Shown: piece after piece, positions 2,773 through 64,000 of the stretch
How the letters are laid out: every line of letters begins with the position of its first letter
Position numbering within the stretch: position 1 is the stretch's first letter
Translations under genes and position numbers: made by a program
The notes under the pieces: generated by a model
The model's database searches: none
Told to the model about the DNA's origin: nothing
What the model saw: only the letters and a program-made list of their open reading frames with translations
From: Escherichia coli
GTDB taxonomy: Bacteria; Pseudomonadota; Gammaproteobacteria; Enterobacterales; Enterobacteriaceae
Reading direction: 5' to 3' (one strand)
Assembly: GCF_029227855.1 (NCBI RefSeq)
Contig: NZ_CP074356.1
DNA length: 64,000 nt

Positions 2773-3069
2773 ATGAAAATAAACCAGCCCGCCGTTGCAG
2801 GCACCCTTGAGTCTGGGGATGTGATGATACGCATCGCCCCACTCGATACGCAGGATATCGACCTGCAAATCAACAGCAGCGTTGAGAAACAGTTTGGCGA
2901 TGCAATTCGCACCACCATTCTGGACGTTCTCGCCCGCTACAACGTGCGCGGCGTACAGCTGAATGTCGATGATAAAGGCGCACTGGACTGCATTTTACGT
3001 GCACGACTGGAAGCCCTGCTGGCACGCGCCAGCGGTATCCCGGCTCTGCCATGGGAGGATTGCCAATGA
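2773..3069 (+). CDS. citD: Citrate lyase acyl carrier protein (gamma subunit) CitD, 98 aa
   Basis: ORF track 2773..3069, [25 protein letters not shown]...; position between citC and citE. Confidence 0.93.
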
Positions 3070-5520: not shown

Positions 5521-6925
<1,405 letters not shown>

Positions 6926-9358: not shown

Positions 9359-9536
9359 TCCTCTGATTTACAAAACACGCTAATTCGTCTTCCATAAACC
9401 ATGACGATTAAGATTTATACATAATGCGCTACATTGAGGAATTCCCTGAATGTGACGCAAATCACTTCAAAGAGTGAGCAACAGTCAGTATCATCATGTG
9501 AGTTAAACCCTCGCCGCCTGACGGTGAGGGTTTTCT

Positions 9537-10248
9537 TGTGCACAGAAAACCCCCAGCTAGGCTGGGGGTTCCGGAAAGCTTTCAGCTTTGAGCCTGTTAT
9601 TAAAACCCCTTTTGATTTGTTAAAACACCTTGCGGTCTGGCAACTGCAAGTGTCAAACAAGAAATCAAAAGGGGGTCCCAATGGGGAACGAAAAGAGCTT
9701 AGCGCACACCCGATGGAACTGTAAATATCACATAGTTTTTGCGCCAAAATACCGAAGACAGGTGTTCTACAGAGAGAAGCGTAGAGCAATAGGCAGTATT
9801 TTGAGAAAGCTGTGTGAGTGGAAAAGCGTACGGATTCTGGAAGCTGAATGCTGTGCAGATCATATCCATATGCTTGTGGAGATCCCGCCTAAAATGAGCG
9901 TATCCGGGTTTATGGGATATCTGAAAGGGAAAAGCAGTCTGATGCTTTACGAGCAGTTTGGTGATTTGAAATTCAAATACAGGAACAGGGAGTTCTGGTG
10001 CAGAGGGTACTACGTCGATACAGTGGGTAAGAACACGGCGAAGATACAGGATTACACAAAGCACCAGCTTGAAGAGGATAAAATGGGAGAGCAGTTATCG
10101 ATTCCCTATCCGGGCAGCCCGTTTACGGGCCGTAAGTAACGAAGTTGGATGCAAATGTCAGATCGTGTGCGCCTGTTAGGGCGCGGCTGGTAAGAGAGCC
10201 TTATAGGCGCATTTGAAAAACCTCCGGCTATGCCGGAGGATATTTATT
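9537..10248 (+). mobile_element. IS200 copy 1 (IS200/IS605 family), ~712 bp, boundaries approximate (+/- 5 bp)
   Basis: Boundaries set by where the sequence stops matching the reverse complement of copy 2 (48334..49046). Contains a left-end hairpin CCCCCAGC-TAG-GCTGGGGG, a 152-aa tnpA, and a right-end hairpin CCTCCGGC-TAT-GCCGGAGG. No terminal inverted repeats, as expected for this family. Confidence 0.85.
9681..10139 (+). CDS. tnpA: IS200 transposase TnpA (HUH Y1 transposase), 152 aa
   Basis: ORF 9630..10139; start taken at ATG 9681 (MGNEKSLAHTRWNCKYHIVFAPKYRRQVFY...HIHMLVEIPPK), the IS200 TnpA signature. Confidence 0.9.
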   Translation: MGNEKSLAHTRWNCKYHIVFAPKYRRQVFYREKRRAIGSILRKLCEWKSVRILEAECCADHIHMLVEIPPKMSVSGFMGYLKGKSSLMLYEQFGDLKFKYRNREFWCRGYYVDTVGKNTAKIQDYTKHQLEEDKMGEQLSIPYPGSPFTGRK

Positions 10249-10299
10249 TTTGGGTATGTTTATCTGCGACACTCGCAGTACCGACGACATGGAGTAAAA

Positions 10300-10710
10300 A
10301 TGTCCAGACCAACTATCATCATTAACGACCTGGATGCCGAACGCATCGATATTCTGCTGGAGCAACCCGCCTATGCTGGTTTGCCAATCGCCGACGCGTT
10401 AAACGCAGAGTTGGATCGCGCCCAAATGTGTTCGCCAGAAGAGATGCCACACGACGTGGTGACAATGAACAGCCGGGTTAAATTCCGCAATCTTAGCGAT
10501 GGCGAAGTGCGTGTGCGCACGCTGGTGTATCCGGCAAAAATGACCGACAGCAATACTCAGCTTTCCGTTATGGCTCCGGTAGGTGCCGCACTGCTGGGGC
10601 TGCGCGTTGGCGATTCCATTCACTGGGAACTTCCGGGCGGCGTTGCAACCCACCTTGAAGTGCTGGAACTCGAATACCAGCCAGAAGCTGCTGGCGACTA
10701 CCTGCTTTAA
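10300..10710 (+). CDS. rnk: Regulator of nucleoside diphosphate kinase Rnk (GreA/GreB-like), 136 aa
   Basis: ORF 10213..10710; start taken at ATG 10300 ([28 protein letters not shown]...). Confidence 0.9.
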
Positions 10711-10852: not shown

Positions 10853-10942
10853 ATGAGCGAAGCTCTCGGTATCACTGCATTTTATATATTCATAGCCGCG
10901 ATTATTGTTGCTGCAGTGCTATACCTTGAACAACGCTGGTAG
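10853..10942 (+). CDS. Candidate small hydrophobic protein, 29 aa (MSEALGITAFYIFIAAIIVAAVLYLEQRW), hypothetical
   Basis: Short ATG-to-TAG ORF read from the raw sequence in the 355-bp rnk-uspG spacer; one predicted transmembrane helix; weak Shine-Dalgarno. Below the ORF-track size cutoff. Confidence 0.2.
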   Translation: MSEALGITAFYIFIAAIIVAAVLYLEQRW

Positions 10943-11065
10943 CGCCTGGTTTTATTTATTTTCCAGCTCAATAGCAAATTCAGATCAAATCAGCCTCGCA
11001 AATCATAGATTCATAACCAATAATGTGCTGTTATGTATACATGCAAAAACAAGGAGAGAATGCTT

Positions 11066-11494
11066 ATGTACAAGACAATCATCATGCCAGTGGATGTTTT
11101 CGAAATGGAATTGAGCGACAAAGCTGTTCGCCACGCTGAATTCCTCGCCCAGGATGACGGAGTTATTCATCTACTTCACGTACTACCCGGGTCAGCCAGC
11201 CTGAGCCTGCACCGTTTTGCCGCTGATGTGCGTCGTTTTGAAGAGCATCTGCAACATGAAGCAGAAGAACGTCTGCAAACGATGGTCAGCCACTTCACCA
11301 TCGATCCTTCCCGCATTAAGCAACATGTCCGTTTTGGTAGCGTGCGGGATGAAGTCAATGAGTTGGCAGAAGAACTGGGGGCTGATGTTGTAGTTATCGG
11401 TTCGCGCAACCCTTCGATTTCGACCCATCTGTTAGGTTCTAACGCCTCGAGCGTGATCCGCCACGCCAATCTGCCGGTGCTGGTTGTGCGTTAA
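11066..11494 (+). CDS. uspG: Universal stress protein G (UspG/YbdQ), 142 aa
   Basis: ORF 11033..11494; start taken at ATG 11066 ([29 protein letters not shown]...). Confidence 0.9.
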
Positions 11495-16289: not shown

Positions 16290-17510
16290 ATGTCTATTTA
16301 TAAAATCCCGCTTCCACTGAATATTCTGGAAGCTGCAAAAGAACGTATTACCTGGACACTTAACACCCTACCCCGTGTCTGCGTTTCTTTTTCGGGTGGT
16401 AAAGATTCCGGATTAATGCTGCATCTGACCGCCGAACTTGCCCGACAAATGGGCAAAAAAATTTGTGTTTTATTTATCGACTGGGAAGCTCAGTTCTCTT
16501 GCACCATTAACTATGTTCAGTCCCTGCGCGAGTTGTACACCGATGTCATCGAAGAGTTTTACTGGGTTGCGCTCCCGCTTACAACGCAAAATTCCCTATC
16601 ACAATACCAACCCGAATGGCAGTGCTGGGAACCTGATGTCGAATGGGTACGTCAGCCCCCGCAAGATGCGATAACCGATCCTGACTTTTTCTCCTTTTAC
16701 CAGCCTGGCATGACCTTCGAACAATTTGTGCGTGAGTTTGCCGAATGGTTTTCGCAAAAACGTCCGGCGGCGATGATGATCGGCATCCGTGCGGATGAGT
16801 CCTACAACCGTTTTGTCGCCATCGCCAGTTTAAATAAACAACGTTTTGCCGATGATAAGCCCTGGACTACTGCCGCACCAGGCGGTCATAGCTGGTACAT
16901 ATACCCCATCTACGACTGGAAAGTCGCTGATATCTGGACCTGGTATGCTAGCCATCAACGCCTCTGTAACCCACTGTATAATATAATGTATCAGGCAGGC
17001 GTTCCTCTACGTCATATGCGAATTTGCGAACCTTTTGGTCCGGAACAACGGCAAGGATTATGGCTCTATCACGTTATCGAACCGGATCGCTGGGCTGCTA
17101 TGTGCGCACGAGTCAGCGGGGTAAAAAGTGGCGGCATTTACGCCGGACATGACAACCATTTTTATGGTCATCGGAAAATCCTCAAGCCCGAACATTTAGA
17201 CTGGCAGGAGTATGCATTATTGCTACTCAACAGCATGCCGGAGAAAACAGCTGAGCATTATCGCAATAAAATCGCCATTTATTTGCACTGGTATCAGAAA
17301 AAAGGCATCGAGGTTCCACAAACCCAGCAAGGGGACATTGGCGCGAAAGATATCCCCTCCTGGCGGCGAATATGCAAAGTTTTACTCAATAACGATTACT
17401 GGTGTCGGGCATTATCATTTAGCCCGACCAAAGCGAAGAACTATCAGCGTTATAACGAACGAATAAAAGGAAAACGTCAGGAATGGGGGATACTATGCAA
17501 CAACGATTAA
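16290..17510 (+). CDS. ybdN: PAPS-reductase-like (adenine-nucleotide alpha-hydrolase) protein YbdN, 406 aa
   Basis: ORF track 16290..17510; SFSGGKDS P-loop-like motif near the N-terminus; synteny. Confidence 0.88.
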   Translation: MSIYKIPLPLNILEAAKERITWTLNTLPRVCVSFSGGKDSGLMLHLTAELARQMGKKICVLFIDWEAQFSCTINYVQSLRELYTDVIEEFYWVALPLTTQNSLSQYQPEWQCWEPDVEWVRQPPQDAITDPDFFSFYQPGMTFEQFVREFAEWFSQKRPAAMMIGIRADESYNRFVAIASLNKQRFADDKPWTTAAPGGHSWYIYPIYDWKVADIWTWYASHQRLCNPLYNIMYQAGVPLRHMRICEPFGPEQRQGLWLYHVIEPDRWAAMCARVSGVKSGGIYAGHDNHFYGHRKILKPEHLDWQEYALLLLNSMPEKTAEHYRNKIAIYLHWYQKKGIEVPQTQQGDIGAKDIPSWRRICKVLLNNDYWCRALSFSPTKAKNYQRYNERIKGKRQEWGILCNND

Positions 17511-23076: not shown

Positions 23077-24238
<1,162 letters not shown>

Positions 24239-24239
<1 letters not shown>

Positions 24240-25096
24240 TATTTCACCTCGCGGGAAAGTAGCTTCCACCAGGCGTCGATGGTCGGGTTTTTCGCCAGCA
24301 TGACAAAGTCGATATCGCCATGCACTTTGCGCCAGCGCGCCGCCAGCGCCATCATCCGCACCGAATCCAGACCGTAGTCGATCAGGTTGTCGTCATCGAA
24401 CGGTTCATCGGACTCGTCCAGCAACGGCAGGATCACCTCACGCAGCGCCGCTTTGCTGGCGGGGACAGGTGCTGGCAGCAATTCTTCGGTCATCACCACC
24501 CGGCCAGAACGTCCGGCCACATATTTCAGCGACATCAAATGCTCGTCACGGCTGAAATCAGCCAGCGCATCCGCCACCATAAACGGTTTAATATCGCGCA
24601 TAAATGCGTCCGTTGCGGTGGTCATACAGCCAATGTGGGCATATACCCCGGTAATAATCAGCTGGTTACGTCCACTCTCTTTCAGCATTTGCTCCAGCGG
24701 GGAACGATGAAACGCGCTGTAGCGCCACTTCACCAGCACCGTGTCGTCGGCATCTGGCGTCAGGCGATCCACCACCTTTTGCTGTTCCGGCGAACGGGTC
24801 AGGCCAGGCCCCCACATATCATTCAACAGCGCCCGATCTTCATCGCTCTGCTCTTTCGGCTGGGCGGTGTAATAAACCGGGATATTGTGCTGTTTGCAGT
24901 AGTCGCGTAGTGCCGCAATATTCGCGATCACCTGCTCCATCATCGGGCAGTTCTCGCCCCAGAAGCTGACAAAATAGTCCTGCATATCATGGATTAACAA
25001 CGCGGCACGTTGCGGTTCAAAGGCCCAGTCAACTTTATTCTGCGGAATATCGTGAGACTCCGGCAGTGCGTAAGCCTGTAATTTTGGAATAGCCAT
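24239..25096 (-). CDS. entB: Isochorismatase / aryl carrier protein EntB, 285 aa
   Basis: ORF track 24239..25096, MAIPKLQAYALPESHDIPQNKVDWAFEPQRAALLIHDMQDYF...; C-terminal carrier domain (DNLIDYGLDSVRMMAL). Confidence 0.95.
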
Positions 25097-30414: not shown

Positions 30415-31419
30415 ATGTCTGGTTCTGTTGCCGTGACACGCGCCATTGCCGTGCCCGGATTGCTGTTATTACTGATTATCGCGACGGCATTAAGCCTGCT
30501 CATTGGGGCAAAATCACTCCCCGCTTCCGTAGTGCTGGAGGCGCTCTCCGGCACCTGCCAGAGCGCCGACTGCACCATTGTGCTCGACGCCCGTCTGCCG
30601 CGCACCCTTGCCGGTTTACTGGCAGGCGGTGCGCTTGGGCTTGCCGGGGCGCTGATGCAAACCCTCACCCGAAACCCACTTGCCGACCCCGGCTTGCTTG
30701 GCGTGAACGCCGGAGCCAGCTTTGCCATTGTGCTGGGTGCGGCGCTGTTTGGTTACTCTTCCGCACAGGAACAACTGGCGATGGCCTTCGCCGGGGCGCT
30801 GGTGGCCTCATTGATTGTTGCCTTTACCGGCAGCCAGGGCGGCGGGCAGTTAAGTCCGGTGCGTTTAACCCTGGCGGGCGTGGCACTGGCGGCGGTGCTG
30901 GAAGGGCTGACCAGCGGCATCGCCCTGCTTAATCCTGACGTCTACGATCAGTTGCGTTTCTGGCAAGCCGGTTCGCTGGATATTCGCAATCTACATACCT
31001 TAAAAGTGGTGCTGATCCCGGTGCTGATCGCCGGAGCAACCGCGCTATTACTGAGCCGCGCGCTGAACAGTTTAAGCCTCGGCAGTGACACCGCGACGGC
31101 GCTGGGTAGTCGCGTGGCGCGCACACAGTTGATTGGTCTGCTGGCGATTACCGTGCTTTGTGGTAGTGCGACGGCGGTAGTTGGCCCGATTGCCTTTATT
31201 GGCCTGATGATGCCGCATATGGCACGTTGGTTGGTGGGTGCCGATCATCGCTGGTCGCTGCCCGTCACGCTGCTTGCTACCCCTGCCCTGCTGCTGTTTG
31301 CCGATATCATCGGGCGGGTGATTGTGCCCGGCGAACTGCGCGTTTCTGTAGTCAGTGCCTTTATTGGCGCACCGGTGCTGATCTTCCTCGTGCGACGTAA
31401 AACGCGAGGTGGCGCATGA
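30415..31419 (+). CDS. fepD: Ferric-enterobactin ABC transporter permease FepD, 334 aa
   Basis: ORF 30403..31419; start taken at ATG 30415 (MSGSVAVTRAIAVPGLLLLLIIATALSLLIGAK...). Confidence 0.9.
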   Translation: MSGSVAVTRAIAVPGLLLLLIIATALSLLIGAKSLPASVVLEALSGTCQSADCTIVLDARLPRTLAGLLAGGALGLAGALMQTLTRNPLADPGLLGVNAGASFAIVLGAALFGYSSAQEQLAMAFAGALVASLIVAFTGSQGGGQLSPVRLTLAGVALAAVLEGLTSGIALLNPDVYDQLRFWQAGSLDIRNLHTLKVVLIPVLIAGATALLLSRALNSLSLGSDTATALGSRVARTQLIGLLAITVLCGSATAVVGPIAFIGLMMPHMARWLVGADHRWSLPVTLLATPALLLFADIIGRVIVPGELRVSVVSAFIGAPVLIFLVRRKTRGGA

Positions 31420-32408
31420 TTTACGTCTCTCGCCGATTAATCATCACCTGTTTGCTGCTAATTACCGCCTGTGTGGTTGCAGGTATCTGGGGATTACGCA
31501 GCGGTGCCGTCACGCTGGAAACCTCGCAGATATTCGCCGCGCTGATGGGCGATGCGCCGCGCAGTATGACGATGGTGGTCACCGAATGGCGTTTACCACG
31601 CGTGCTGATGGCGCTGTTAATTGGCGCGGCTCTGGGCGTCAGCGGCGCGATTTTTCAGTCGCTGATGCGTAACCCGCTCGGCAGCCCTGACGTAATGGGC
31701 TTTAACACCGGGGCGTGGAGCGGCGTGCTGGTGGCGATGGTGCTGTTTGGTCAGGACCTGACGGCTATCGCCCTGGCAGCAATGGTGGGCGGCATTGTCA
31801 CCTCGCTGCTGGTCTGGCTGCTTGCCTGGCGTAACGGTATCGACACCTTTCGGTTAATTATTATCGGTATCGGTGTTCGCGCCATGCTGGTGGCCTTTAA
31901 TACCTGGTTGTTGCTGAAAGCGTCTTTAGAAACGGCGCTAACAGCGGGTTTGTGGAATGCCGGATCGCTCAACGGCCTGACGTGGGCAAAAACCTCGCCT
32001 TCCGCGCCCATCATTATATTGATGCTCATTGCCGCCGCCTTACTGGTACGCCGGATGCGCTTGCTGGAAATGGGCGATGATACCGCGTGTGCGTTGGGCG
32101 TCAGCGTCGAACGTTCGCGGCTGTTAATGATGCTGGTGGCAGTGGTGCTCACCGCTGCGGCAACGGCGCTTGCCGGGCCGATTTCCTTTATTGCTTTAGT
32201 CGCGCCACACATTGCCCGGCGCATTAGCGGCACCGCTCGCTGGGGGCTGACCCAGGCGGCGCTGTGCGGGGCGTTGTTACTGCTGGCGGCCGATCTCTGC
32301 GCCCAACAACTGTTTATGCCGTATCAACTTCCGGTTGGCGTCGTTACCGTCAGCCTCGGTGGTATTTACCTTATCGTCTTGTTAATTCAGGAGTCTCGCA
32401 AAAAATGA
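31416..32408 (+). CDS. fepG: Ferric-enterobactin ABC transporter permease FepG, 330 aa
   Basis: ORF track 31416..32408; ATGA start/stop overlap with fepD. Confidence 0.92.
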   Translation: MIYVSRRLIITCLLLITACVVAGIWGLRSGAVTLETSQIFAALMGDAPRSMTMVVTEWRLPRVLMALLIGAALGVSGAIFQSLMRNPLGSPDVMGFNTGAWSGVLVAMVLFGQDLTAIALAAMVGGIVTSLLVWLLAWRNGIDTFRLIIIGIGVRAMLVAFNTWLLLKASLETALTAGLWNAGSLNGLTWAKTSPSAPIIILMLIAAALLVRRMRLLEMGDDTACALGVSVERSRLLMMLVAVVLTAAATALAGPISFIALVAPHIARRISGTARWGLTQAALCGALLLLAADLCAQQLFMPYQLPVGVVTVSLGGIYLIVLLIQESRKK

Positions 32409-33220
32409 CCGAATCAGTAGCCCGTTTGCGTGGCGAACAGTTAACCCTCGGATATGGCAAATATACCGTTGCGGAAAATCTGACTGTAGAAATTCCTGAT
32501 GGTCACTTCACGGCAATTATCGGGCCAAATGGCTGCGGTAAATCCACGTTACTGCGTACTTTAAGCCGCCTGATGACGCCTGCTCACGGGCATGTCTGGC
32601 TGGATGGTGAGCACATTCAACATTACGCCAGTAAAGAGGTTGCACGCCGGATTGGCCTGTTGGCGCAAAATGCTACCACGCCGGGCGATATCACCGTGCA
32701 GGAGCTGGTGGCGCGTGGACGTTACCCGCATCAACCGCTGTTTACCCGCTGGCGCAAAGAGGATGAAGAAGCGGTAACGAAAGCGATGCAGGCCACGGGA
32801 ATCACTCATCTGGCAGATCAAAGCGTGGATACCCTTTCTGGCGGACAACGCCAGCGAGCGTGGATAGCAATGGTGCTGGCCCAGGAAACGGCAATTATGC
32901 TGCTCGATGAACCAACGACCTGGCTGGATATCAGTCATCAGATTGATTTGCTGGAACTGTTAAGCGAACTGAACCGCGAGAAAGGCTATACCCTGGCGGC
33001 GGTGCTGCACGATCTTAATCAGGCCTGTCGTTACGCCAGCCATTTGATTGCATTGCGGGAAGGGAAAATTGTTGCTCAGGGAGCGCCGAAAGAGATTGTC
33101 ACTGCTGAATTGATCGAGCGCATTTATGGTCTGCGCTGCATGATAATTGACGATCCGGTTGCCGGAACGCCGCTCGTGGTGCCGCTCGGACGAACGGCAC
33201 CTTCAACCGCAAATAGTTAA
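32405..33220 (+). CDS. fepC: Ferric-enterobactin ABC transporter ATPase FepC, 271 aa
   Basis: ORF 32264..33220; start taken at ATG 32405 (MTESVARLRGEQLTLGYGKY...); Walker A GPNGCGKST and LSGGQRQR signature; ATGA overlap with fepG. Confidence 0.92.
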   Translation: MTESVARLRGEQLTLGYGKYTVAENLTVEIPDGHFTAIIGPNGCGKSTLLRTLSRLMTPAHGHVWLDGEHIQHYASKEVARRIGLLAQNATTPGDITVQELVARGRYPHQPLFTRWRKEDEEAVTKAMQATGITHLADQSVDTLSGGQRQRAWIAMVLAQETAIMLLDEPTTWLDISHQIDLLELLSELNREKGYTLAAVLHDLNQACRYASHLIALREGKIVAQGAPKEIVTAELIERIYGLRCMIIDDPVAGTPLVVPLGRTAPSTANS

Positions 33221-37500: not shown

Positions 37501-38447
37501 TGTGCTGCCAGTCGGGTTGCCAGTTCCGGCAGCGTTTCTTGTGCCGCAATGTGAATCCCCAACGGCAAAACGTTGAGCACGGGTCCGGTAGCCGTCAGCG
37601 CCGCCGAGCCCAGTCGACGCATAAAGATAAATCCGGCGGCGTAGTCCATGCGATTGCACAATCGCCCCAGCCACAAGGCTGCCAACGCAAGTGCTAAATC
37701 GGTACGCTGCACACCTGAAAGTTGCGTAGCCAGCTGGCGGAATTCCCCGTCGGTAAACTCCAGTTTCAGGCGCAGAATATCTGCCGAGACGCTGCGCCCC
37801 GGTAAAGGTGCCGGAGAAAGTGACGCGGGCGGCGGCAGTTGACGACGCTGTTCCGTCCAGAATGCCGCATCACGCTGCCAGGCTTCGCTTTCGCGGTATT
37901 GCTGGTACTCTTCCACGACATCAGCGAAAGGCGTAAACGGCGAAGCAGGCGTTGGTTCGCCACGCAGCCATGCGCAGTAAATATTGGCGATCTGGCGGGT
38001 AATGGCCGGGAAACTGAAGCCATCGACCAGCAAATGGTGATAACGCTGATACCAGTACCAGCGGTTATCTGCCACCTGAATGAGCTGATGAAAGACCAGC
38101 GGTTTGCCGCTGTCGGCACGTAGATTTTGCTGTAAATCCGCCTGCATTAATGCCCGCGCAGTACCGTGCGGATCAATGTTGGTTCGCAGGTCGATAATTT
38201 CTGGCAGTTCGAACGTCAGCGCATCATCGACCCACTGCCAGACTTCGCCGTTATCTTCCGTAAAACGCATCCGCAGCGTATCTGCTTGCGCTATTCCGGC
38301 AACCACCGCGCGGGCCAGTAGTGGCGCATCAACCTCTCCGGTTAACTCAACGTAATGCGCCACGCTCCAGGCGGAGGGTAAATCCGACAGTTTTTCTGCC
38401 ATCCAGATGCCGGGCTGTGCGGCGACCAAAGGTAAATGCTGGCTCAT
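34566..38447 (-). CDS. entF: Enterobactin synthase component F (NRPS: C-A-PCP-TE), 1293 aa
   Basis: ORF track 34566..38447, MSQHLPLVAAQPGIWMAEKLSD...; adenylation motifs (FTSGSTGRPKGV), PCP (GGHSLLA), thioesterase GYSLGG. Confidence 0.96.
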   Translation of the reverse strand: MSQHLPLVAAQPGIWMAEKLSDLPSAWSVAHYVELTGEVDAPLLARAVVAGIAQADTLRMRFTEDNGEVWQWVDDALTFELPEIIDLRTNIDPHGTARALMQADLQQNLRADSGKPLVFHQLIQVADNRWYWYQRYHHLLVDGFSFPAITRQIANIYCAWLRGEPTPASPFTPFADVVEEYQQYRESEAWQRDAAFWTEQRRQLPPPASLSPAPLPGRSVSADILRLKLEFTDGEFRQLATQLSGVQRTDLALALAALWLGRLCNRMDYAAGFIFMRRLGSAALTATGPVLNVLPLGIHIAAQETLPELATRLAAQLKKMRRYQRYDAEQIVRDSGRAAGEEPLFGPVLNIKVFDYQLDIPGVQTQTHTLATGPVNDLELALFPDEHGDLSIEILANKQRYDEPTLIQHAERLKMLIAQFAADPALLCGDVDIMLPGEYVQLAQINATQVEIPETTLSALVAEQAAKTPHAPALVDASYQFSYREMREQVVALANLLRERGVKPGDSVAVALPRSVFLTLALHAIVEAGAAWLPLDTGYPDDRLKMMLEDARPSLLITTDDQLPRFADVPDLTSLCYNAPLTPQGSAPLKLSQPHHTAYIIFTSGSTGRPKGVMVGQTAIVNRLLWMQNHYPLTGEDVVAQKTPCSFDVSVWEFFWPFIAGAKLVMAEPEAHRDPLAMQQFFAEYGVTTTHFVPSMLAAFVASLTPQTARQNCATLKQVFCSGEALPADLCREWQQLTSVPLHNLYGPTEAAVDVSWYPAFGEELAQVRGSSVPIGYPVWNTGLRILDAMMHPVPPGVAGDLYLTGIQLAQGYLGRPDLTASRFIADPFAPGERMYRTGDVARWLDNGAVEYLGRSDDQLKIRGQRIELGEIDRVMQALPDVEQAVTHACVINQAAATGGDARQLVGYLVSQSGLPLDTTALQAQLRETLPPHMVPVVLLQLPQLPLSANGKLDRKALPLPELKAQAPGRAPKAGSETIIAAAFSSLLGCDVQDADADFFALGGHSLLAMKLAAQLSRQFTRQVTPGQVMVASTVAKLATIIDGEEDSSRRMGFETILPLREGNGPTLFCFHPASGFAWQFSVLSRYLDPQWSIIGIQSPRPNGPMQTAANLDEVCEAHLATLLEHQPHGPYYLLGYSLGGTLAQGIAARLRARGEQVAFFGLLDTWPPETQNWQEKEANGLDPEVLAEINREREAFLAAQQGSTSTELFTTIEGNYADAVRLLTTAHSVPFDGKATLFVAERTLQEGMNPERAWSPWIAELDIYRQDCAHVDIISPGAFEKIGPIIRATLNR

Positions 38448-38662
38448 TGTGCCTCCTGCAACTGGGTGAAATTCGCCGGTGTCAGAGTACGCCAGTGGGC
38501 TTCAAGCCACTGCTGGCAGGACGCCTGTGACTGCGGCTGACACACAACGACCCAGCCTGCCGGTAAGGCGCATTGTTGCGGCCACAGACTGAATTGCCCC
38601 TGCGCATTGCGCAAAATGTTAAACGCTCCCTGCGGATCATCGAAGGGATTACTGAATGCCAT
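38444..38662 (-). CDS. ybdZ: MbtH-like protein YbdZ, 72 aa
   Basis: ORF 38444..38668 (upstream TTG); start taken at ATG 38662 (MAFSNPFDDPQGAFNILRNAQGQFSLWPQQ...); overlaps the entF start by 4 nt. Confidence 0.88.
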   Translation of the reverse strand: MAFSNPFDDPQGAFNILRNAQGQFSLWPQQCALPAGWVVVCQPQSQASCQQWLEAHWRTLTPANFTQLQEAQ

Positions 38663-38664
38663 AT

Positions 38665-39867
38665 TCAACTCCTGTCATGGAAAAGTGGTTGCCAGAGGTC
38701 GATTAGCCCCTGCATCAAGCCACCGCGCCAACAAAGCGCATCATGTCCGCCGTCAACCTGACGCCAGAAAATGGATTCTTTTATGGGGTGTAATTGCGCA
38801 TACAGCGCCTGATTGGCCCGCATGATCATCGGCTCGCGAATACCCGCTTCCAGCATAATGCGCAGACCTTCGGCGCTAACTTCACCAGCTTTAAGTTGCT
38901 CAAGTAAAACACCTTCTTGCTGCCCGCCCCGATGAGGCCACCAGTACGATCCTGACTGGCTTAATACACAGCCAAAGCGTTCAGGCCAGTGCAGTCCGGC
39001 ATACAGCGCGGAAAGTCCACCAAAACTCTGCCCGGCGACCACGGTGCGATCGGCGCGATCGCTAAAAGGGGCAATAGCTTTCACCAGGGGTAATAACTCT
39101 TGCTGTACTGCCAGCCAGAAATCCGCATTACACGGCAGTTCGTGGGCGCGGTGCGTGGTGTCAATAGCGTCGATCAACACATACACGGCGGGAGGAAGTT
39201 GCTGACGATGGGTCAACGAAGTCAGCACAGGCCAGACAGGCATACTCTGCGCCCAAAATTCGCCATCGAGCAAAACTGCCAGCGGGCGTTCTCCTGCTGT
39301 TGCATCGCCGGTGGTAAAAATCCATACACGGCGTGAATTTTTCAACCGCTCACTTTTCCAGATAATTTCTTTGGCAGGCGTTTCTGGCGCTTGCGGACAA
39401 TCCCATCCCGGTTGTAGGGGCGCTTGCGGCATTTCGAGTGCAGAAACAGCGTGCCCTCGCCCGCCTTTCCAGCTTTGTGGATTCAGCGGATCGGCTATCG
39501 CCTGGGGCAATAGTTTTCGCCAGCCTTCACGTAATTCGAGGCGATCGGGGGATGGTGCAGAAAAAATGTCATCGCGTTCGGTGGGAATAAAACAGTAGCT
39601 GCCGCGCCAGTTGGCATTAAGTTGTGTCGTCCACTGCCAGACGTTGGTACCTGCAATTCGCTGCATCGACTGGGGCTGGCTGTTCTGATGGTGATCGGTC
39701 ACACCAGTGATGTAGACCCATACGCGCTTTATCGTCGAGTATTCTTCAGAACCTTGGGGATCACGCCACCAGAAAGTGACCTCAAACATTTCGTCATTCA
39801 GACGCTGCCATTCCGGGCCATGTTTCGACTGCCACCAGCTCTCACTTCCTACTTTTAACGCCGTCAC
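38665..39867 (-). CDS. fes: Enterochelin esterase Fes, 400 aa (start at GTG 39867; the internal ATG at 39789, MFEVTFWW..., would give 374 aa)
   Basis: ORF track 38665..39867, ...MFEVTFWWRDPQGSEEYSTIKRVWVYITGV...GQSFGG esterase motif; start codon choice uncertain. Confidence 0.88.
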   Translation of the reverse strand: MTALKVGSESWWQSKHGPEWQRLNDEMFEVTFWWRDPQGSEEYSTIKRVWVYITGVTDHHQNSQPQSMQRIAGTNVWQWTTQLNANWRGSYCFIPTERDDIFSAPSPDRLELREGWRKLLPQAIADPLNPQSWKGGRGHAVSALEMPQAPLQPGWDCPQAPETPAKEIIWKSERLKNSRRVWIFTTGDATAGERPLAVLLDGEFWAQSMPVWPVLTSLTHRQQLPPAVYVLIDAIDTTHRAHELPCNADFWLAVQQELLPLVKAIAPFSDRADRTVVAGQSFGGLSALYAGLHWPERFGCVLSQSGSYWWPHRGGQQEGVLLEQLKAGEVSAEGLRIMLEAGIREPMIMRANQALYAQLHPIKESIFWRQVDGGHDALCWRGGLMQGLIDLWQPLFHDRS

Positions 39868-43266: not shown

Positions 43267-43419
43267 CTACTTCTTCGGTTCGTAAGCGAGAACAGCCTTA
43301 AACTCAATATTACGTTCCTTCACCGTAAACTCACACAGCGAGTCGCGGACCAGAAGCGTAAATCCCAGCACCGTTAAACACAGCACTATGACTGCCACAA
43401 GGGCATATTTCGTCAGCAT
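43267..43419 (-). CDS. hokE: Hok-family membrane toxin, copy A, 50 aa (Arg at position 25)
   Basis: ORF 43267..43455; Hok start at ATG 43419 with GGAGG Shine-Dalgarno: [50 protein letters not shown]. Confidence 0.8.
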
Positions 43420-43519
43420 GTTTATATTGCCTCCATGCGAAGAAGGGACTACCATCCGAGTTGTTCAGGTTTGGGTAGGTAGCCCCAGGGTTGATAGAAA
43501 TATCGTCCTGGGGCTTCAT
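43331..43519 (-). CDS. mok-like overlapping reading frame of hok copy A, 62 aa
   Basis: ORF track 43331..43519 ([20 protein letters not shown]...), starts upstream of hok and overlaps it out of frame, the arrangement known for mok in hok/sok loci. Confidence 0.4.
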
Positions 43520-43670
43520 CTTTCCAGACCTCAGAGTTAACCTGAAACCGGAAAGCTTCAGGCACCCGCCGTTATCTTACCCTTCCTCAGCAAAATAGCT
43601 GTTTATTTATACAGTGAATCCTGTTTCGGACTTCTGTTGGCAAAACTGATCATTGCCCTTAAAACGACAT

Positions 43671-44139
43671 CGCCCGCAGCCATTGCTGACCGCGGGCGAA
43701 AGTGTAAAGCAGGTGCCTTACCACCCTGACCTGACAACCGGATATGCGGGGATTACTCCCCGCACAACGGCTACTTCTTCGGTTCGTAAGCGAGAACAGC
43801 CTTAAACTCAATATTACGTTCCTTCACCGTAAACTCACACAGCGAGTCTCCGACCAGAAGCGTAAATCCCAGTACCGTCAAACACAGCACTATGACTGCC
43901 ACAAGGGCATATTTCGTCAGCATGTTTATATTGCCTCCATGCGAAGAAGGGACTACCATCCAAATTGTCTGGTTTGGAGTGGCAGCCCCAGGGTTGATAG
44001 AAATATCTCCTGGGGCTTCATCTTTCCAGACCTCAGAGTAAACCTGAAACCGGAAAGCTTCAGGCACCCGCCGTTATCTTACCCTTCCTCAGCAAAATGG
44101 CTGTTTATTTATACAGTGAGTCCTGTTTCGGACTTCTCA
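43671..44139 (-). other. hok/sok-type type I toxin-antitoxin locus, copy B (hokE-like), boundaries approximate
   Basis: Tandem direct repeat of copy A with a 504-bp period; same stem-loops; differs by several substitutions and small indels in the mok/leader region. Confidence 0.8.
43771..43923 (-). CDS. hokE: Hok-family membrane toxin, copy B, 50 aa (Gly at position 25)
   Basis: ORF 43771..44067; Hok start at ATG 43923 with GGAGG Shine-Dalgarno: [50 protein letters not shown]. In this copy the upstream frame is fused in-frame to hok. Confidence 0.8.
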
Positions 44140-48333: not shown

Positions 48334-49046
48334 AATAAATATCCTCCGGCATAGCCGGAGGTTTTTCAAATGCGCCTATAAGGCTCTCTTACCAGCCGCG
48401 CCCTAACAGGCGCACACGATCTGACATTTGCATCCAACTTCGTTACTTACGGCCCGTAAACGGGCTGCCCGGATAGGGAATCGATAACTGCTCTCCCATT
48501 TTATCCTCTTCAAGCTGGTGCTTTATGTAATCCTGTATCTTCGCCGTGTTCTTACCCACTGTATCGACGTAGTACCCTCTGCACCAGAACTCCCTGTTCC
48601 TGTATTTGAATTTCAAATCACCAAACTGCTCGTAAAGCATCAGACTGCTTTTCCCTTTCAGATATCCCATAAACCCGGATACGCTCATTTTGGGCGGGAT
48701 CTCCACAAGCATATGGATATGATCTGCACAGCATTCAGCTTCCAGAATCCGTACGCTTTTCCACTCACACAGCTTTCTCAAAATACTGCCTATTGCTCTA
48801 CGCTTCTCTCTGTAGAACACCTGTCTTCGGTATTTTGGCGCAAAAACTATGTGATATTTACAGTTCCATCGGGTGTGCGCTAAGCTCTTTTCGTTCCCCA
48901 TTGGGACCCCCTTTTGATTTCTTGTTTGACACTTGCAGTTGCCAGACCGCAAAGTGTTTTAACAAATCAAAAGGGGTTTTAATAACTGGCTCAAAGCTGA
49001 AAGCTTTCCGGAACCCCCAGCCTAGCTGGGGGTTTTCTGTGCACAA
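48334..49046 (-). mobile_element. IS200 copy 2 (IS200/IS605 family), ~713 bp, inverted relative to copy 1; boundaries approximate
   Basis: Reverse complement matches copy 1 over its full length; I saw one mismatch in the noncoding left part plus one TnpA codon difference. Begins 3 bp after the ybdG stop; its other end abuts the pheP terminator hairpin. Confidence 0.85.
48443..48901 (-). CDS. tnpA: IS200 transposase TnpA, 152 aa
   Basis: ORF 48443..48952; start taken at the ATG at 48901 (MGNEKSLAHTRWNCKYHIVFAPKYRR...); differs from copy 1 at one residue (Ile versus Thr in ...KIQDY[I/T]KHQ...). Confidence 0.9.
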   Translation of the reverse strand: MGNEKSLAHTRWNCKYHIVFAPKYRRQVFYREKRRAIGSILRKLCEWKSVRILEAECCADHIHMLVEIPPKMSVSGFMGYLKGKSSLMLYEQFGDLKFKYRNREFWCRGYYVDTVGKNTAKIQDYIKHQLEEDKMGEQLSIPYPGSPFTGRK

Positions 49047-56876: not shown

Positions 56877-57560
56877 ATGAAACTGTTGATTGTCGAAGAT
56901 GAAAAGAAAACCGGAGAATACTTGACCAAAGGGTTAACCGAAGCCGGTTTTGTGGTCGATTTGGCCGACAACGGGCTGAATGGCTACCATCTGGCGATGA
57001 CCGGAGATTATGATCTGATAATCCTCGATATTATGCTGCCGGACGTGAACGGCTGGGATATCGTGCGCATGTTGCGTTCCGCCAATAAAGGGATGCCGAT
57101 TCTGTTGCTTACCGCGCTTGGTACCATTGAACATCGCGTCAAGGGGCTGGAGTTGGGGGCGGATGACTATCTGGTGAAGCCGTTCGCTTTTGCTGAACTG
57201 CTGGCGCGGGTGCGCACTCTACTGCGGCGCGGGGCGGCGGTAATTATCGAAAGTCAGTTTCAGGTTGCCGATCTGATGGTCGATCTCGTCAGCCGCAAAG
57301 TCACCCGCAGCGGCACGCGCATCACTCTGACCAGTAAAGAATTTACTCTGCTGGAGTTTTTCCTCCGCCATCAAGGCGAAGTGCTGCCCCGCTCGCTTAT
57401 CGCCTCGCAGGTGTGGGACATGAATTTCGACAGCGATACCAACGCCATTGATGTGGCAGTGAAGCGGCTGCGCGGCAAAATCGACAACGACTTTGAGCCG
57501 AAGCTGATTCAAACCGTGCGCGGCGTGGGTTACATGCTTGAGGTGCCGGATGGTCAGTAA
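56877..57560 (+). CDS. cusR: Copper-responsive response regulator CusR (OmpR family), 227 aa
   Basis: ORF track 56877..57560, [41 protein letters not shown]... Confidence 0.95.
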
Positions 57561-59734: not shown

Positions 59735-61636
59735 ATGTCAACCGGATTACGTTTCACACTGGAAGTGGACGGCCTGCCGCCGGATGCTTTTGCGGTGGTT
59801 TCCTTTCATCTGAACCAGTCACTCTCTTCGCTCTTTTCCCTCGATCTCTCCCTGGTCAGCCAGCAGTTTCTCTCCCTTGAATTTGCGCAGGTGCTGGACA
59901 AAATGGCCTACCTGACGATATGGCAGGGCGATGAAGTACAGCGCCGGGTGAAAGGCGTGGTGACCTGGTTTGAACTCGGGGAGAACGACAAAAACCAGAT
60001 GCTGTACAGCATGAAGGTGCACCCGCCGCTGTGGCGTGCCGGTCTGCGCCAGAACTTCCGTATCTTCCAGAACGAGGACATCAAAAGCATCCTCGGCACG
60101 ATGTTGCAGGAAAACGGGGTGACCGAATGGAGTCCGCTGTTCAGCGAGCCGCATCCTTCCCGTGAGTTTTGTGTCCAGTACGGTGAGACTGATTACGATT
60201 TCCTGTGCCGGATGGCGGCGGAGGAAGGCATCTTCTTTTATGAGGAGCATGCTTACAAAAGTACCGACCAGAGCCTGGTGCTGTGCGACACAGTCCGCCA
60301 TCTGCCCGAATCTTTTGAAATCCCATGGAACCCGAACACCCGTACCGAGGTGAGCACCCTCTGCATCAGCCAGTTCCGCTACAGCGCACAAATCCGCCCT
60401 TCTTCCGTGGTGACCAAAGACTACACCTTTAAACGCCCCGGCTGGGCCGGACGTTTTGAACAGGAAGGCCAGCACCAGGACTACCAGCGCACGCAGTATG
60501 AAGTGTATGACTACCCCGGACGTTTCAAGGGTGCCCACGGGCAGAACTTTGCCCGCTGGCAGATGGACGGCTGGCGAAACAATGCAGAAACCGCGCGGGG
60601 AATGAGTCGCTCGCCGGAGATATGGCCGGGACGACGAATTGTGCTGACGGGGCATCCGCAGGCGAACCTGAACCGGGAATGGCAGGTGGTGGCAAGTGAA
60701 CTGCACGGCGAACAGCCACAGGCGGTGCCAGGACGGCAGGGAGCGGGGACGGCGCTGGAGAACCATTTTGCGGTGATCCCGGCAGACAGAACATGGCGAC
60801 CACAGCCGTTGCTGAAACCGCTGGTCGACGGCCCGCAGAGCGCTGTCGTGACAGGACCGGCAGGCGAGGAAATCTTCTGCGACGAACATGGTCGCGTGCG
60901 GGTGAAGTTCAACTGGGACCGCTATAACCCGTCAAACCAGGACAGTTCGTGCTGGATCCGTGTGGCACAGGCGTGGGCAGGCACCGGTTTTGGCCACCTG
61001 GCGATACCGCGTGTGGGTCAGGAGGTGATTGTAGACTTCCTCAACGGCGATCCGGACCAGCCGATCATTATGGGGCGCACCTACCACCAGGAAAACCGCA
61101 CCCCCGGCAGCCTGCCGGGAACAAAGACGCAGATGACCATCCGCTCCAAAACGTACATGGGCAGCGGATTTAATGAGCTGAAGTTTGATGATGCGACAGG
61201 GAGAGAACAGGTCTACATCCACGCGCAGAAGAACATGGATACCGAAGTGCTCAACGACCGTACCACCACCGTAAAACACGATCACCACGAAACCGTAAAA
61301 AATGACCAGACGGTCACGATCCAGGAAGGTAACCGCCTTCTTACGGTGGAAAAAGGCCACAAGATCACCGGAGTACTGAAAGGGTCTTTATCTGAGGATG
61401 TCTTTCAGGACAGAGGCACGATTGCCGGTTCGGTGCATGTTGACGCTGTAAACAATGGTGGCGAAGGCGACGGTATACAGGCTTATACGGCGATTAAGGA
61501 AATTTTGCTGGCCGTGGAGGAAAGCAAAATTGCGCTGACGCCGGATGGCATTCAGCTACAGGTCGGGGAATCGACGGTAATCAGGCTGTCGAAGGATGGC
61601 ATCACCATCGTGGGCGGTTCTGTTTTCATCAACTGA
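59735..61636 (+). CDS. vgrG: Type VI secretion spike protein VgrG (gp27/gp5-like), 633 aa, no C-terminal effector extension
   Basis: ORF track 59735..61636 with GGAGG Shine-Dalgarno; MSTGLRFTLEVDGLPPDAFAVVSFHLNQSLSSLFSLDLSLVS... N-terminus is the VgrG signature; followed by a DUF1795 gene and a PAAR-Rhs gene. Confidence 0.85.
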   Translation: MSTGLRFTLEVDGLPPDAFAVVSFHLNQSLSSLFSLDLSLVSQQFLSLEFAQVLDKMAYLTIWQGDEVQRRVKGVVTWFELGENDKNQMLYSMKVHPPLWRAGLRQNFRIFQNEDIKSILGTMLQENGVTEWSPLFSEPHPSREFCVQYGETDYDFLCRMAAEEGIFFYEEHAYKSTDQSLVLCDTVRHLPESFEIPWNPNTRTEVSTLCISQFRYSAQIRPSSVVTKDYTFKRPGWAGRFEQEGQHQDYQRTQYEVYDYPGRFKGAHGQNFARWQMDGWRNNAETARGMSRSPEIWPGRRIVLTGHPQANLNREWQVVASELHGEQPQAVPGRQGAGTALENHFAVIPADRTWRPQPLLKPLVDGPQSAVVTGPAGEEIFCDEHGRVRVKFNWDRYNPSNQDSSCWIRVAQAWAGTGFGHLAIPRVGQEVIVDFLNGDPDQPIIMGRTYHQENRTPGSLPGTKTQMTIRSKTYMGSGFNELKFDDATGREQVYIHAQKNMDTEVLNDRTTTVKHDHHETVKNDQTVTIQEGNRLLTVEKGHKITGVLKGSLSEDVFQDRGTIAGSVHVDAVNNGGEGDGIQAYTAIKEILLAVEESKIALTPDGIQLQVGESTVIRLSKDGITIVGGSVFIN

Positions 61637-61663
61637 TTCACTCAGATTATCAGGGAGTATTTT

Positions 61664-62125
61664 ATGCAGTTCACTTTTAATGAAGGCCACATTCAACTGC
61701 CGTCTCAATGGCAGGATCAGTCAATGCAGGTCCTGGTGTCCACAGATAACAGTGGCATCAACCTGGTCATTACCCGCGAAGCCGTTCCACAGGGAACCCT
61801 GACACCAGAGCTGTACCAGGAAACGCTGGCGCTGTACCAGGGCAAACTTGATGGGTACACCGAACATGCCTGCCGGGAAATCACTCTGGCAGAGGCCCCG
61901 GCCTGGCTGCTGGATTATTCCTGGAACGGTCCGGAAGATGAGGGGAATCAGGGGCGGATTAGCCAGATAGCCGTATTCCAGCGGCGTGGAGATACGCTGC
62001 TGACCTTCACTTTCAGCACCTCCTTATCCCTGAAGAACAGTCAAAAGACGATGCTGCTGGAGGTGATAAAGAGCTTCACCCCGTTGCCACCGGAGAATGA
62101 CATCCAAAAGGACCAGCCGCGCTGA
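61664..62125 (+). CDS. DUF1795 / Eag-family (EagR-like) chaperone for a prePAAR Rhs effector, 153 aa
   Basis: ORF track 61664..62125, MQFTFNEGHIQLPSQWQDQSMQVLVSTDNSGINLVITREAV...; size, N-terminal pattern and position between vgrG and a prePAAR-Rhs gene fit Eag chaperones. Confidence 0.7.
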   Translation: MQFTFNEGHIQLPSQWQDQSMQVLVSTDNSGINLVITREAVPQGTLTPELYQETLALYQGKLDGYTEHACREITLAEAPAWLLDYSWNGPEDEGNQGRISQIAVFQRRGDTLLTFTFSTSLSLKNSQKTMLLEVIKSFTPLPPENDIQKDQPR

Positions 62126-62144
62126 CATAAACGAGGGATAACAC

Positions 62145-64000
62145 ATGAGTGAAGGACCAGGCGGGCCACAGGGAGCGACCGCAGGCGGTACGCTGGCAAT
62201 GCGAATGCTGTCACAGCAGGCGATGGTCGCCAGCCAGATGAAACGGGCAGCCAACGACAAAGCCATTGCACAGATGCTGGCATCAAAAAAGTCCGGCCCC
62301 CCCGCCGCCAGGCTGGGCGATGAAATTCAGCACAAGAGTTTTTTGGGGGCGCTGGCAGGGGCCGTGCTGGGGGCGATAGTGACCATCGCAGAAGGTTGCC
62401 TGATTATGGCCGCCTGTGCCACCGGCCCTTATGCGCTGGTTCTGGTGCCTGCGCTGATGTATGCCAGCTATAAGGCGAGTGATTATGTGGAGGAGAAACA
62501 GAACCAGCTTGAATCATGGATAAACAGCTTTTGTGACACGGACGGCGCCATCAATACCGGTTCTGAAAATGTAAACATTAACGGAAAGCCCGCTGCCAGG
62601 GCCGCCGTCACCCTTCCCCCTCCTCCCCCACCTGGAGCAATACCTGAAATCCCACAGGGGGAACCCTCATGGGGTGATATTGCCACTGACCTGCTTGAAT
62701 CGGCAGCGGAAAAAGCAGTACCACTGGCGAAGGCCTGGGGGAACGCTGTTATCACCCTGACGGACAGCAATGCCGGTTTTATGGATCGCGTCAGCGCCGG
62801 CGCATCGCTTCTGTTTCCCGCCGGTCCGGTATTAATGGAGTTTGCCACCATGGTGGGCGGGCGTGGCGAAATCAAAAAAGATGTGGATTTCCCGGAAGCC
62901 GGTGAGGACACGGCGCTCTGCGACAAGGAGAACAAACCACCGAGGATAGCCCAGGGCAGCAGCAACGTCTTTATCAACAATCAGCCCGCCGCGCGCAAGG
63001 GCGACAAACTGGAGTGCAGCGCGGCAATCGTGGAAGGTTCGCCGGACGTCTTTATTGGCGGTGAACAGGTGACCTATCTGGATATCCAGCCAGAGTTCCC
63101 GCCGTGGCAGAGAATGATCCTGGGGGGAATAACGATAGCCAGCTATCTTCTGCCGCCAGCGGGACTGCTGGGAAAACTGAAGAATCTGGCGAGACTCGGC
63201 AAACTGGGGAACCTGCTGGGGAAAAGCGGGAAGCTGCTGGGGGCAAAGCTCGGCGCGTTGCTGGGAAAAACAGATAAGTCGTTAAAAAGTATTGCCAATA
63301 AAGTCATCAGATGGGTAACAGATCCTGTCGATCCGGTAACCGGCGCGTACTGCGACGAACGTACCGACTTTACGCTGGGCCAGACCCTCCCCCTCTCCTT
63401 CACCCGTTTCCACAGTTCTGTACTGCCGCTGCATGGCCTGACCGGCGTGGGCTGGAGCGACTCCTGGAGCGAATACGCCTGGGTGCGTGAACAGGGAAAC
63501 CGGGTGGATATCATCAGCCAGGGAGCCACGCTGAACTTCGCCTTCGACGGTGACAGTGATACGGCGGTTAACCCGTATCACGCCCAGTACATTCTGCGCC
63601 GCCGCGATGATTATCTGGAGCTGTTCGACAGGGATGCACTGAGCAGCCGCTTCTTTTATGACGCCTTTCCGGGAATGCGTCTGCGCCACCCGGTGACTGA
63701 CGATACCAGCGATGACCGCCTGGCACACAGCCCCAATGACCGGATGTACATGCTGGGCGGGATGAGCGACACCGCCAGCAACCGCATCACGTTTGAGCGC
63801 GACAGCCAGTACCGGATCACAGGTGTCAGTCACACCGACGGGATCCGGCTTAAACTGACGTACCACGCCAGCGGCTACCTGAAAGCCATTCACCGCACGG
63901 ATAACGGCATACAGACGCTGGCGACCTACGAACAGGATGCGCGGGGGCGGCTGACAGAAGCGGATGCGCGGCTGGACTACCACCTGTTTTATGAGTACGA
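62145..64000 (+). CDS. Rhs-family T6SS effector, N-terminal part (prePAAR motif, two TM helices, PAAR domain, start of RHS repeat core); partial, continues beyond window end
   Basis: Own translation from ATG 62145 (GAGGG Shine-Dalgarno): MSEGPGGPQG...AARLGDEIQH (prePAAR AARxxDxxxH) ...FLGALAGAVLGAIVTIAEGCLIMAACATGPYALVLVPALMYASY... PAAR-like INGKPAARA / NVFINNQPAARKGDKLECS ... RWVTDPVDPVTGAY (RHS core start); no stop before position 64000. Confidence 0.85.
   Translation, partial: MSEGPGGPQGATAGGTLAMRMLSQQAMVASQMKRAANDKAIAQMLASKKSGPPAARLGDEIQHKSFLGALAGAVLGAIVTIAEGCLIMAACATGPYALVLVPALMYASYKASDYVEEKQNQLESWINSFCDTDGAINTGSENVNINGKPAARAAVTLPPPPPPGAIPEIPQGEPSWGDIATDLLESAAEKAVPLAKAWGNAVITLTDSNAGFMDRVSAGASLLFPAGPVLMEFATMVGGRGEIKKDVDFPEAGEDTALCDKENKPPRIAQGSSNVFINNQPAARKGDKLECSAAIVEGSPDVFIGGEQVTYLDIQPEFPPWQRMILGGITIASYLLPPAGLLGKLKNLARLGKLGNLLGKSGKLLGAKLGALLGKTDKSLKSIANKVIRWVTDPVDPVTGAYCDERTDFTLGQTLPLSFTRFHSSVLPLHGLTGVGWSDSWSEYAWVREQGNRVDIISQGATLNFAFDGDSDTAVNPYHAQYILRRRDDYLELFDRDALSSRFFYDAFPGMRLRHPVTDDTSDDRLAHSPNDRMYMLGGMSDTASNRITFERDSQYRITGVSHTDGIRLKLTYHASGYLKAIHRTDNGIQTLATYEQDARGRLTEADARLDYHLFYEY

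Follow-up and report, generated by a model that had tools for sequence, protein, structure and literature searches.

Ordinary overlaps of stop and start codons with conserved geometry in the cit, ent/fep and cus regions of Escherichia coli

Results

Gene organization of the analyzed region

The whole stretch of DNA that was analyzed, 64,000 nucleotides in length and referred to below as the window, spans the cit–ahp–ybd–ent/fep–cus region of the Escherichia coli chromosome. For a 20-kb slice of the window, matches that cover 80% or more of the slice are present in 5,412 of the 5,426 complete E. coli genomes. The genes annotated by PGAP in strain JNEC-KY178 (NZ_AP045174.1, 3541834-3605833), which matches the window at 100%, are as follows.

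Cit side: dpiB, citCDEFXGT, rna, rnk, uspG, ahpCF, dsbG, citR, ybdNM, ybdL, hcxA, cstA
Ent/fep side: entH-A-B-E-C, fepB, entS, fepDGC, fepE, entF, ybdZ, fes, fepA, entD
Cus side: hokE, ybdK through ybdG, pheP, cusABFC, cusRS, vgrG/Rhs island

An initial annotation of the window had proposed nine overlaps between adjacent genes and described translational coupling through them as extensive. Each junction was compared with the PGAP annotation and was also read directly. Eight of the nine overlaps agree in length with both; the ninth, between fes and ybdZ, is a gap of 2 nt. K-12 MG1655 has the same geometry and the same distances as the window at every junction. The pairs concerned are all co-directional, with distances (negative for overlaps) ranging from -28 to +2, too short to accommodate a promoter or terminator, and their junctions are listed below.

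3066-3069, plus strand: ATGA of the citD stop and citE start, -4, with the Shine-Dalgarno (SD) motif GGGAGG supplied by conserved Trp-Glu codons of CitD
6047-6072, plus strand: 26-nt overlap of citX and citG, with the citG ATG in an Asp codon of CitX (gATG) and GGAGG 12 nt upstream
17483-17510, plus strand: 28-nt overlap of ybdN and ybdM, as annotated (16 nt if the ATG at 17495 is the start)
24241..24237, minus strand: TAATG of the entB stop and entA start, -1, inside the span 24236-24242 flagged by the initial annotation
24245..24250, minus strand: SD motif GAGGTG of entA, within the last entB codons (R-E-V-K-stop), 5 nt upstream of the ATG
31416-31419, plus strand: ATGA of the fepD stop and fepG start, -4, preceded by GAGGTG; anti-SD ΔG -10.4
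32405-32408, plus strand: ATGA of the fepG stop and fepC start, -4, with AGGAG 11 nt upstream; ΔG -6.9
38447..38444, minus strand: ATGA of the ybdZ stop and entF start, -4, preceded by AGGAGG; ΔG -10.3
38660..38667, minus strand: fes/ybdZ junction, TGAATATG, with the fes TGA at 38667..38665 and the ybdZ ATG from 38662
57550-57560, plus strand: 11-nt overlap of cusR and cusS, with the cusS ATG in Pro-Asp codons of CusR (ccgGATGgt) and GAGGTG 4 nt upstream; ΔG -9.2

Apart from these junctions, the window carries one tail-to-tail overlap and several structural differences from K-12.

33217-33220: palindromic TTAA shared by the stops of the convergent genes fepC and fepE, a 4-nt overlap irrelevant to coupling and absent from the initial list
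9434-9542: Rfam rnk leader (RF01771), separated from the rnk coding sequence (10300) by an IS200C copy without counterpart in K-12
9548-9671 and 9681-10139: STnc490 RNA element and tnpA of this IS200C copy (span 9434-10300)
48443-48901 and 48911-49034, minus strand: tnpA and STnc490 of a second IS200C, between ybdG and pheP, not in K-12
10942-11066: site where ybdR, located between uspG and yldA in K-12, is missing; the yldA–uspG distance is 123 nt
43267-44069: two tandem copies of the hokE/sok toxin-antitoxin system, each accompanied by a pseudogene fragment (hokE at 43267-43419 and 43771-43923; sok, from Rfam, at 43411-43567 and 43915-44069); K-12 has a single copy, adjoining IS186B
59735-64000: string of type VI secretion vgrG, DcrB-related and Rhs-core genes 3' of cusS, where K-12 has nfrB

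Initiation signals at the junctions

At all the pairs, the upstream gene carries the SD motif of the downstream gene within its own 3' end. When all in-frame candidates were compared, anti-SD pairing was strongest at the annotated start at eight of the nine junctions, the exception being ybdM. The annotated overlapping starts other than M1 of ybdM (-5.6) give values from -6.9 to -10.4 kcal/mol; the alternatives lie between about +2 and -6. At the entB/entA junction (minus-strand sequence ...CGCGAGGTGAAATAATGGATTTC...), the entB TAA (24241..24239) and the entA ATG (24239..24237) have base 24239 in common, and the entA start pairs at -10.2, as compared with +0.4 for the sole other in-frame candidate (GTG at 24269). 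The citE start likewise pairs at -10.2, as compared with -3.1 for the upstream ATG at 3051.

When all eight junction regions were folded as RNA, none exceeded shuffled controls in stability (z between -1.4 and +1.7), and a hairpin masking the SD motif was dropped as a candidate feature of these junctions.

Frequency of tight junctions

Among the 41 same-strand adjacent pairs in the window, eight form tight junctions (-8 to +6), or 20%, as compared with 707 of 2987 pairs (24%) in the E. coli genome (Huber 2023, PMC10666635). Enrichment of tight junctions in the window is thus rejected (8/41 against 23.7%, binomial p = 0.71), and the overlapping that had been called extensive is at the normal level of E. 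coli. The same survey finds -4 and -1 to be the most frequent junction distances, both in E. coli and over 1,695 genomes, and finds long overlaps to be rarer than short ones by a factor of about four; its supplement also lists, with identical distances, the K-12 counterpart of each pair treated here (PMC10666635). The overlaps are real at eight of the nine sites, ordinary and already known, and represent the normal packing of bacterial operons.

As a measure of chance, the window stop codons without an annotated -1 or -4 partner were examined. Of these 50 stops, eight carry a start codon (ATG, GTG or TTG) in the -4 or -1 register, four of them ATG, and the TTGA at the fes stop is one of the eight. 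As 16% of other stops carry such a motif, its presence says little by itself about where a gene starts.

Conservation of the short overlaps

For the ent/fep genes, a FepD scan of species-representative genomes gave 80 Enterobacteriaceae loci with ±10 kb of flanking sequence. Orthologous gene ends were located by tblastn, and the downstream start was taken, by a rule of our own, as the start codon with the best SD pairing near aligned residue 1. For the cit genes, CitX homologues of 60-80% identity from eight other genera were fetched together with flanking DNA.

Counted over these phylogenetically related species, the -1 register of entB/entA is kept at 64 of 70 loci, and the -4 register is kept in 71 of 79 species for fepD/fepG, in 79 of 80 for fepG/fepC, and in 9/9 genera for citD/citE (ATGA, GTGA once); ybdZ/entF is only moderately kept, at -4 in 35 of 63 species, +10 in 15 and -8 in nine. 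The fepD/fepG starts at -4 are ATG (49), GTG (20) and TTG (2), and seven further species read GTGATG, allowing either -4 or -1. For the COG pairs FepD@FepG, FepG@FepC and CitD@CitE, the median distance over hundreds of genomes is between -3.4 and -4, that of CitD@CitE being -4 over 160 genomes (PMC10666635).

The entB/entA junction is maintained through changes of both codons: the pairs at -1 are TAA-ATG (37), TGA-ATG (23) and TAG-GTG (4), the entA start being GTG where the entB stop is TAG because the shared base requires it. The exceptions, at -4 or +2, are all Buttiauxella. The overlap persists despite in-frame indels of one to three codons right after the ATG, and the entA SD motif is kept in most of the aligned loci. 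On the other side of entA, the distance to entH is +2 in the window and always between -1 and +2 across the Enterobacteriaceae loci.

EntA of Escherichia (24231-24239) is without three N-terminal codons, beginning MDF instead of the MAGLDF or MAGFDF of most other Enterobacteriaceae (loci L009-L084); intermediate lengths are found in a few genera, and the overlap with entB is kept in all. The EntA N-terminus was reportedly sequenced in the era of the original entB/entA sequence papers of 1989; no evidential weight is given to this here.

The non-random aspect of these overlaps is their geometry, which is conserved across species. The initial annotation had regarded the overlaps as independent support for the chosen start codons. 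Conservation of the -1 or -4 geometry across genera does corroborate the chosen ATGs of entA, fepG, fepC, entF and citE; such support does not extend to the long overlaps, nor to the motif by itself.

One short overlap seems to have disappeared in E. coli. In the window, the citC stop (TGA, 2756-2758) is separated from the citD ATG (2773) by a gap of +14 (span 2755-2775), whereas citC of eight other genera ends in ATGA on the citD start, with a -4 overlap. The citC gene of E. coli, in the window strain as well as in K-12, has TGA where the other genera have TTA (Leu), and the last five CitC codons are gone; a single nonsense substitution thus seems to have abolished an ancestral overlap of citC and citD. 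The citF/citX junction stands at +3 in the window.

The fes/ybdZ junction

A further ent/fep overlap proposed by the initial annotation, 4 nt between the fes stop and the ybdZ start, was not borne out: only the two letters AT separate the fes TGA from the ybdZ ATG (...AGGAGTTGAATATG). K-12 shows identical geometry, and this pair is tabulated as +2 among K-12 pairs (Huber 2023, PMC10666635). An in-frame TTG at 38668, the sole codon that could produce such an overlap, forms TTGA with the fes stop by a chance match and had evidently been taken as the ybdZ start. This candidate was rejected on two grounds, that AGGAG abuts the TTG with zero spacing (ΔG +0.7 as compared with -6.9 for the ATG) and that the position of the ATG corresponds to YbdZ residue 1 in the alignments with 63 of 63 other species. 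The ybdZ ATG is invariant while the fes–ybdZ distance varies from -26 to +98 across species.

The long overlaps

The overlap of citX and citG is 26-29 nt in 9/9 genera, with the citG start at the same or the adjacent codon and the reading frame open from there. This start sits in a conserved CitX motif, ...MEALL(N/H)D..., and neither protein is well conserved in the tail that lies in the overlap. A search for citG homologues by tblastn, in which the distant homologues found on plasmids align only from residue 27-28 on, was for that reason uninformative as to the citG start, and the question was settled instead by the CitX homologues with their flanking DNA. Fused CitXG proteins occur in other bacteria; reading of the 26-nt overlap revealed no slippery or prfB-like motif for a frameshift fusion of CitX and CitG. 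In Salmonella enterica subsp. salamae (locus L092, 5524-5529), the citG gene call starts on ATA, which is probably a miscall, since the next codon is an ATG that aligns with the start of the other genera.

The start of ybdM, and hence the figure of 28 nt for its overlap with ybdN, appears ambiguous from the sequence. A second in-frame ATG, codon 5 (17495), has stronger SD pairing than the annotated start (-8.4 as compared with -5.6). In plasmid paralogues of 57% identity, ATGGGGGAT is kept as the ybdM start, with a strong AGGAG at 6-nt spacing and a 16-nt overlap, and codon 5 is GTG, forming GTGA with the stop of the ybdN-like gene.

A long overlap by itself gives no support for the choice of a start codon.

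Discussion

Two kinds of junction

Taken together, these results make it probable that the window contains two ordinary kinds of junction, short ones that would operate by termination-reinitiation and long ones at which initiation would be independent or loosely coupled. The overlap proposed for fes/ybdZ was a misread gap. At the short overlaps (entB/entA, fepD/fepG, fepG/fepC, ybdZ/entF and citD/citE), the downstream start is interleaved with the upstream stop. A ribosome finishing the upstream protein would already be on the downstream start and would restart there, termination-reinitiation being the most likely mechanism, and the SD motif that the final codons of the upstream gene contain would help the restart. 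Translation of the second gene would then follow that of the first, by analogy with the E. coli pairs that have been tested.

Five pairs are inside the range predictive of reinitiation (-8 to about +6 or +10), entB/entA, fepD/fepG, fepG/fepC, ybdZ/entF and citD/citE, as are fes/ybdZ, entA/entH and citF/citX; cusR/cusS (-11), citX/citG (-26) and ybdN/ybdM (-28 or -16) are outside. With a gap as wide as about 20 nt, coupling was found to break down (PMC10666635). Strict coupling was found in four of five native E. coli pairs at -4, and removal of the SD motif lowered reinitiation at all four coupled pairs, being essential at one and giving a reduction of 60-90% at three (Huber 2019, PMC6728339). 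Coupling at the -1 and -4 junctions of the window is plausible on this comparison. The geometry is no proof of coupling, because bioBF, one of the five pairs tested, was initiated de novo (PMC6728339). For the genes treated here, the literature covered, which included the Nakahigashi 2016 TetRP work, the TRAINSPOTTER 2026 N-terminomics paper and the Ribo-RET preprint, yielded no coupling measurement, start-site ribosome profiling or N-terminal proteomics, and nothing specific was found on coupling in ent, ybdZ/entF or citX/citG. The genes of these junctions are repressed under standard growth conditions.

The initial annotation had attributed the overlaps to the needs of stoichiometric complexes. 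Pairs at distances of -8 to +10 are indeed enriched 4.5-fold for subunits of heteromeric complexes (PMC10666635), and complex status, as judged here from the literature only, fits the view for part of the set: fepD/fepG and fepG/fepC, both listed at -4, and citD/citE are scored as complexes, but entB/entA, ybdZ/entF, cusR/cusS (listed at -11) and citF/citX are scored as not complexes (Huber 2023, PMC10666635). For EntB and EntA, the known contact is an in vivo two-hybrid interaction only, within a proposed dynamic EntCBAE assembly. YbdZ has been reported to bind EntF.

Initiation at the long overlaps

At cusR/cusS, citX/citG and ybdN/ybdM, the downstream start is found a good distance ahead of the stop, among codons that are conserved in the upstream protein, while the protein tails encoded in the overlap show little conservation. 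Initiation there would more likely be independent, or coupled in a loose way at most, and passing ribosomes may reduce it. Coupling at overlaps of 11-28 nt is doubtful; independent initiation, perhaps with some damping by elongating ribosomes, is no less likely.

A stronger form of this damping, in which the long overlaps serve as expression dampers, elongating ribosomes covering the downstream SD motif and start so that CusS, CitG and YbdM are kept below the upstream protein, is conceivable but rather doubtful. In two-component systems, the sensor kinase is usually far less abundant than its response regulator, and the long-overlap geometry is conserved in both cus/sil and cit. The overlaps of 11-28 nt are, in addition, outside the range predictive of reinitiation, and cusR and cusS are scored as not forming a complex (PMC10666635). 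Against a damper, the phage fr coat and lysis genes reinitiate across a 34-nt overlap, as cited in the same survey (PMC10666635), and the overlap length varies between relatives (8 as compared with 11 nt, 26 with 29, and 16 with 28), an indication that the exact distance is under little constraint.

Possible compact packing without coupling

The SD motif present at every downstream start allows an opposite view of the short junctions, namely that each downstream SD is bound de novo and that -1 and -4 are the shortest spacings produced by mutation and deletion bias. No stable structure at any junction would block free access of 30S subunits, starts in the -4 or -1 register occur by chance at 16% of other stops, and bioBF does behave in this way (PMC6728339). 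The RRF-depletion study of Saito 2020, as it is cited in PMC10666635, agrees, its conclusion being that coupling in E. coli is not achieved mainly by reinitiation. Neutral packing, however, does not predict that the exact -1 or -4 register is held over dozens of species despite codon changes and nearby indels; the neighbouring citC/citD junction of E. coli, which drifted to +14 by one nonsense change, indicates that drift happens where it is tolerated; and four of the five tested E. coli pairs were strictly coupled (PMC6728339). Packing without coupling is unlikely as the general account.

Possible annotation artefacts

It is still less likely that some of the overlaps, chiefly the long ones, are artefacts of annotation, with true starts farther downstream (ybdM at 17495, citG at 6053 or 6131) and the overlap shorter or absent. 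The better SD pairing of the ybdM ATG at 17495, the alignment of distant citG homologues only from residue 27-28, the long SD spacing (12 nt) of the citG ATG at 6047, and the repeated revision of the RefSeq citE and citC records, both now at protein version.4, speak for such artefacts. For citG, however, the start is at 6047 or one codon from it in all nine genera with the frame open, all gene callers give overlaps of 26-29 nt, and SD pairing at the alternative ATG of 6131 is weak (-4.2). For ybdM, the M1 codon (ATGGGGGAT) is kept in the plasmid paralogues, where a strong, well-spaced AGGAG precedes it, their starts being homologous, and a start at 17495 would still leave 16 nt of overlap with ybdN. 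The ATG of cusS is likewise homologous to that of silS.

Long overlaps as a possible functional class

The 26-29 nt of citX/citG in nine genera with the start fixed in conserved CitX codons, together with the cus/sil and ybdN/ybdM families, and the strict -1 of entB/entA kept through paired changes of stop and start (TAG with GTG), could be read to mean that long overlaps form a functional class of their own, setting a fixed sub-stoichiometric ratio through ribosome occlusion or backward reinitiation, and that entB/entA undergoes obligatory 70S reinitiation, in which case its -1 register would tie EntA output to EntB; this we consider improbable.

Significance and comparison with known systems

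Under the two-kinds reading that we favour, the short overlaps would fit the textbook picture of coupling within operons, and coupling at overlaps of 11-28 nt should not be assumed. The value of the analysis is mainly one of annotation quality: five RefSeq start codons are corroborated, with cautions for fes/ybdZ and for the ybdM start. The cross-species tables provide a small, clean example of conservation of an overlap register, including a TAG stop with a GTG start.

The short overlaps are comparable to the termination-reinitiation pairs of Huber 2019 and 2023 (PMC6728339, PMC10666635), where the K-12 counterparts of the window pairs are tabulated. The E. coli pairs tested experimentally there are others than those of the window, hyfHI, astDB, ydbH/ynbE, menDH and bioBF (2019) and three native pairs (2023). 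The long overlaps resemble the coat/lysis junction of phage fr, for which a scanning model was proposed (Adhin and van Duin 1990, as cited in PMC10666635), in that the start of citG, ybdM or cusS precedes the upstream stop by tens of nucleotides; they differ from it in that reinitiation has been demonstrated in the phage, whereas the window pairs are chromosomal and known here by their geometry. The closest counterpart of cusR/cusS is the homologous plasmid system silR/silS, a silver/copper two-component system with 57% identity in the kinase. On Klebsiella and Pantoea plasmids, the silS ATG is located at the same place as that of cusS, in the Pro-Asp codons of the regulator, but the overlap is 8 nt instead of 11 because the regulator tail is one codon shorter (...PDA-stop as compared with ...PDGQ-stop in cusR).
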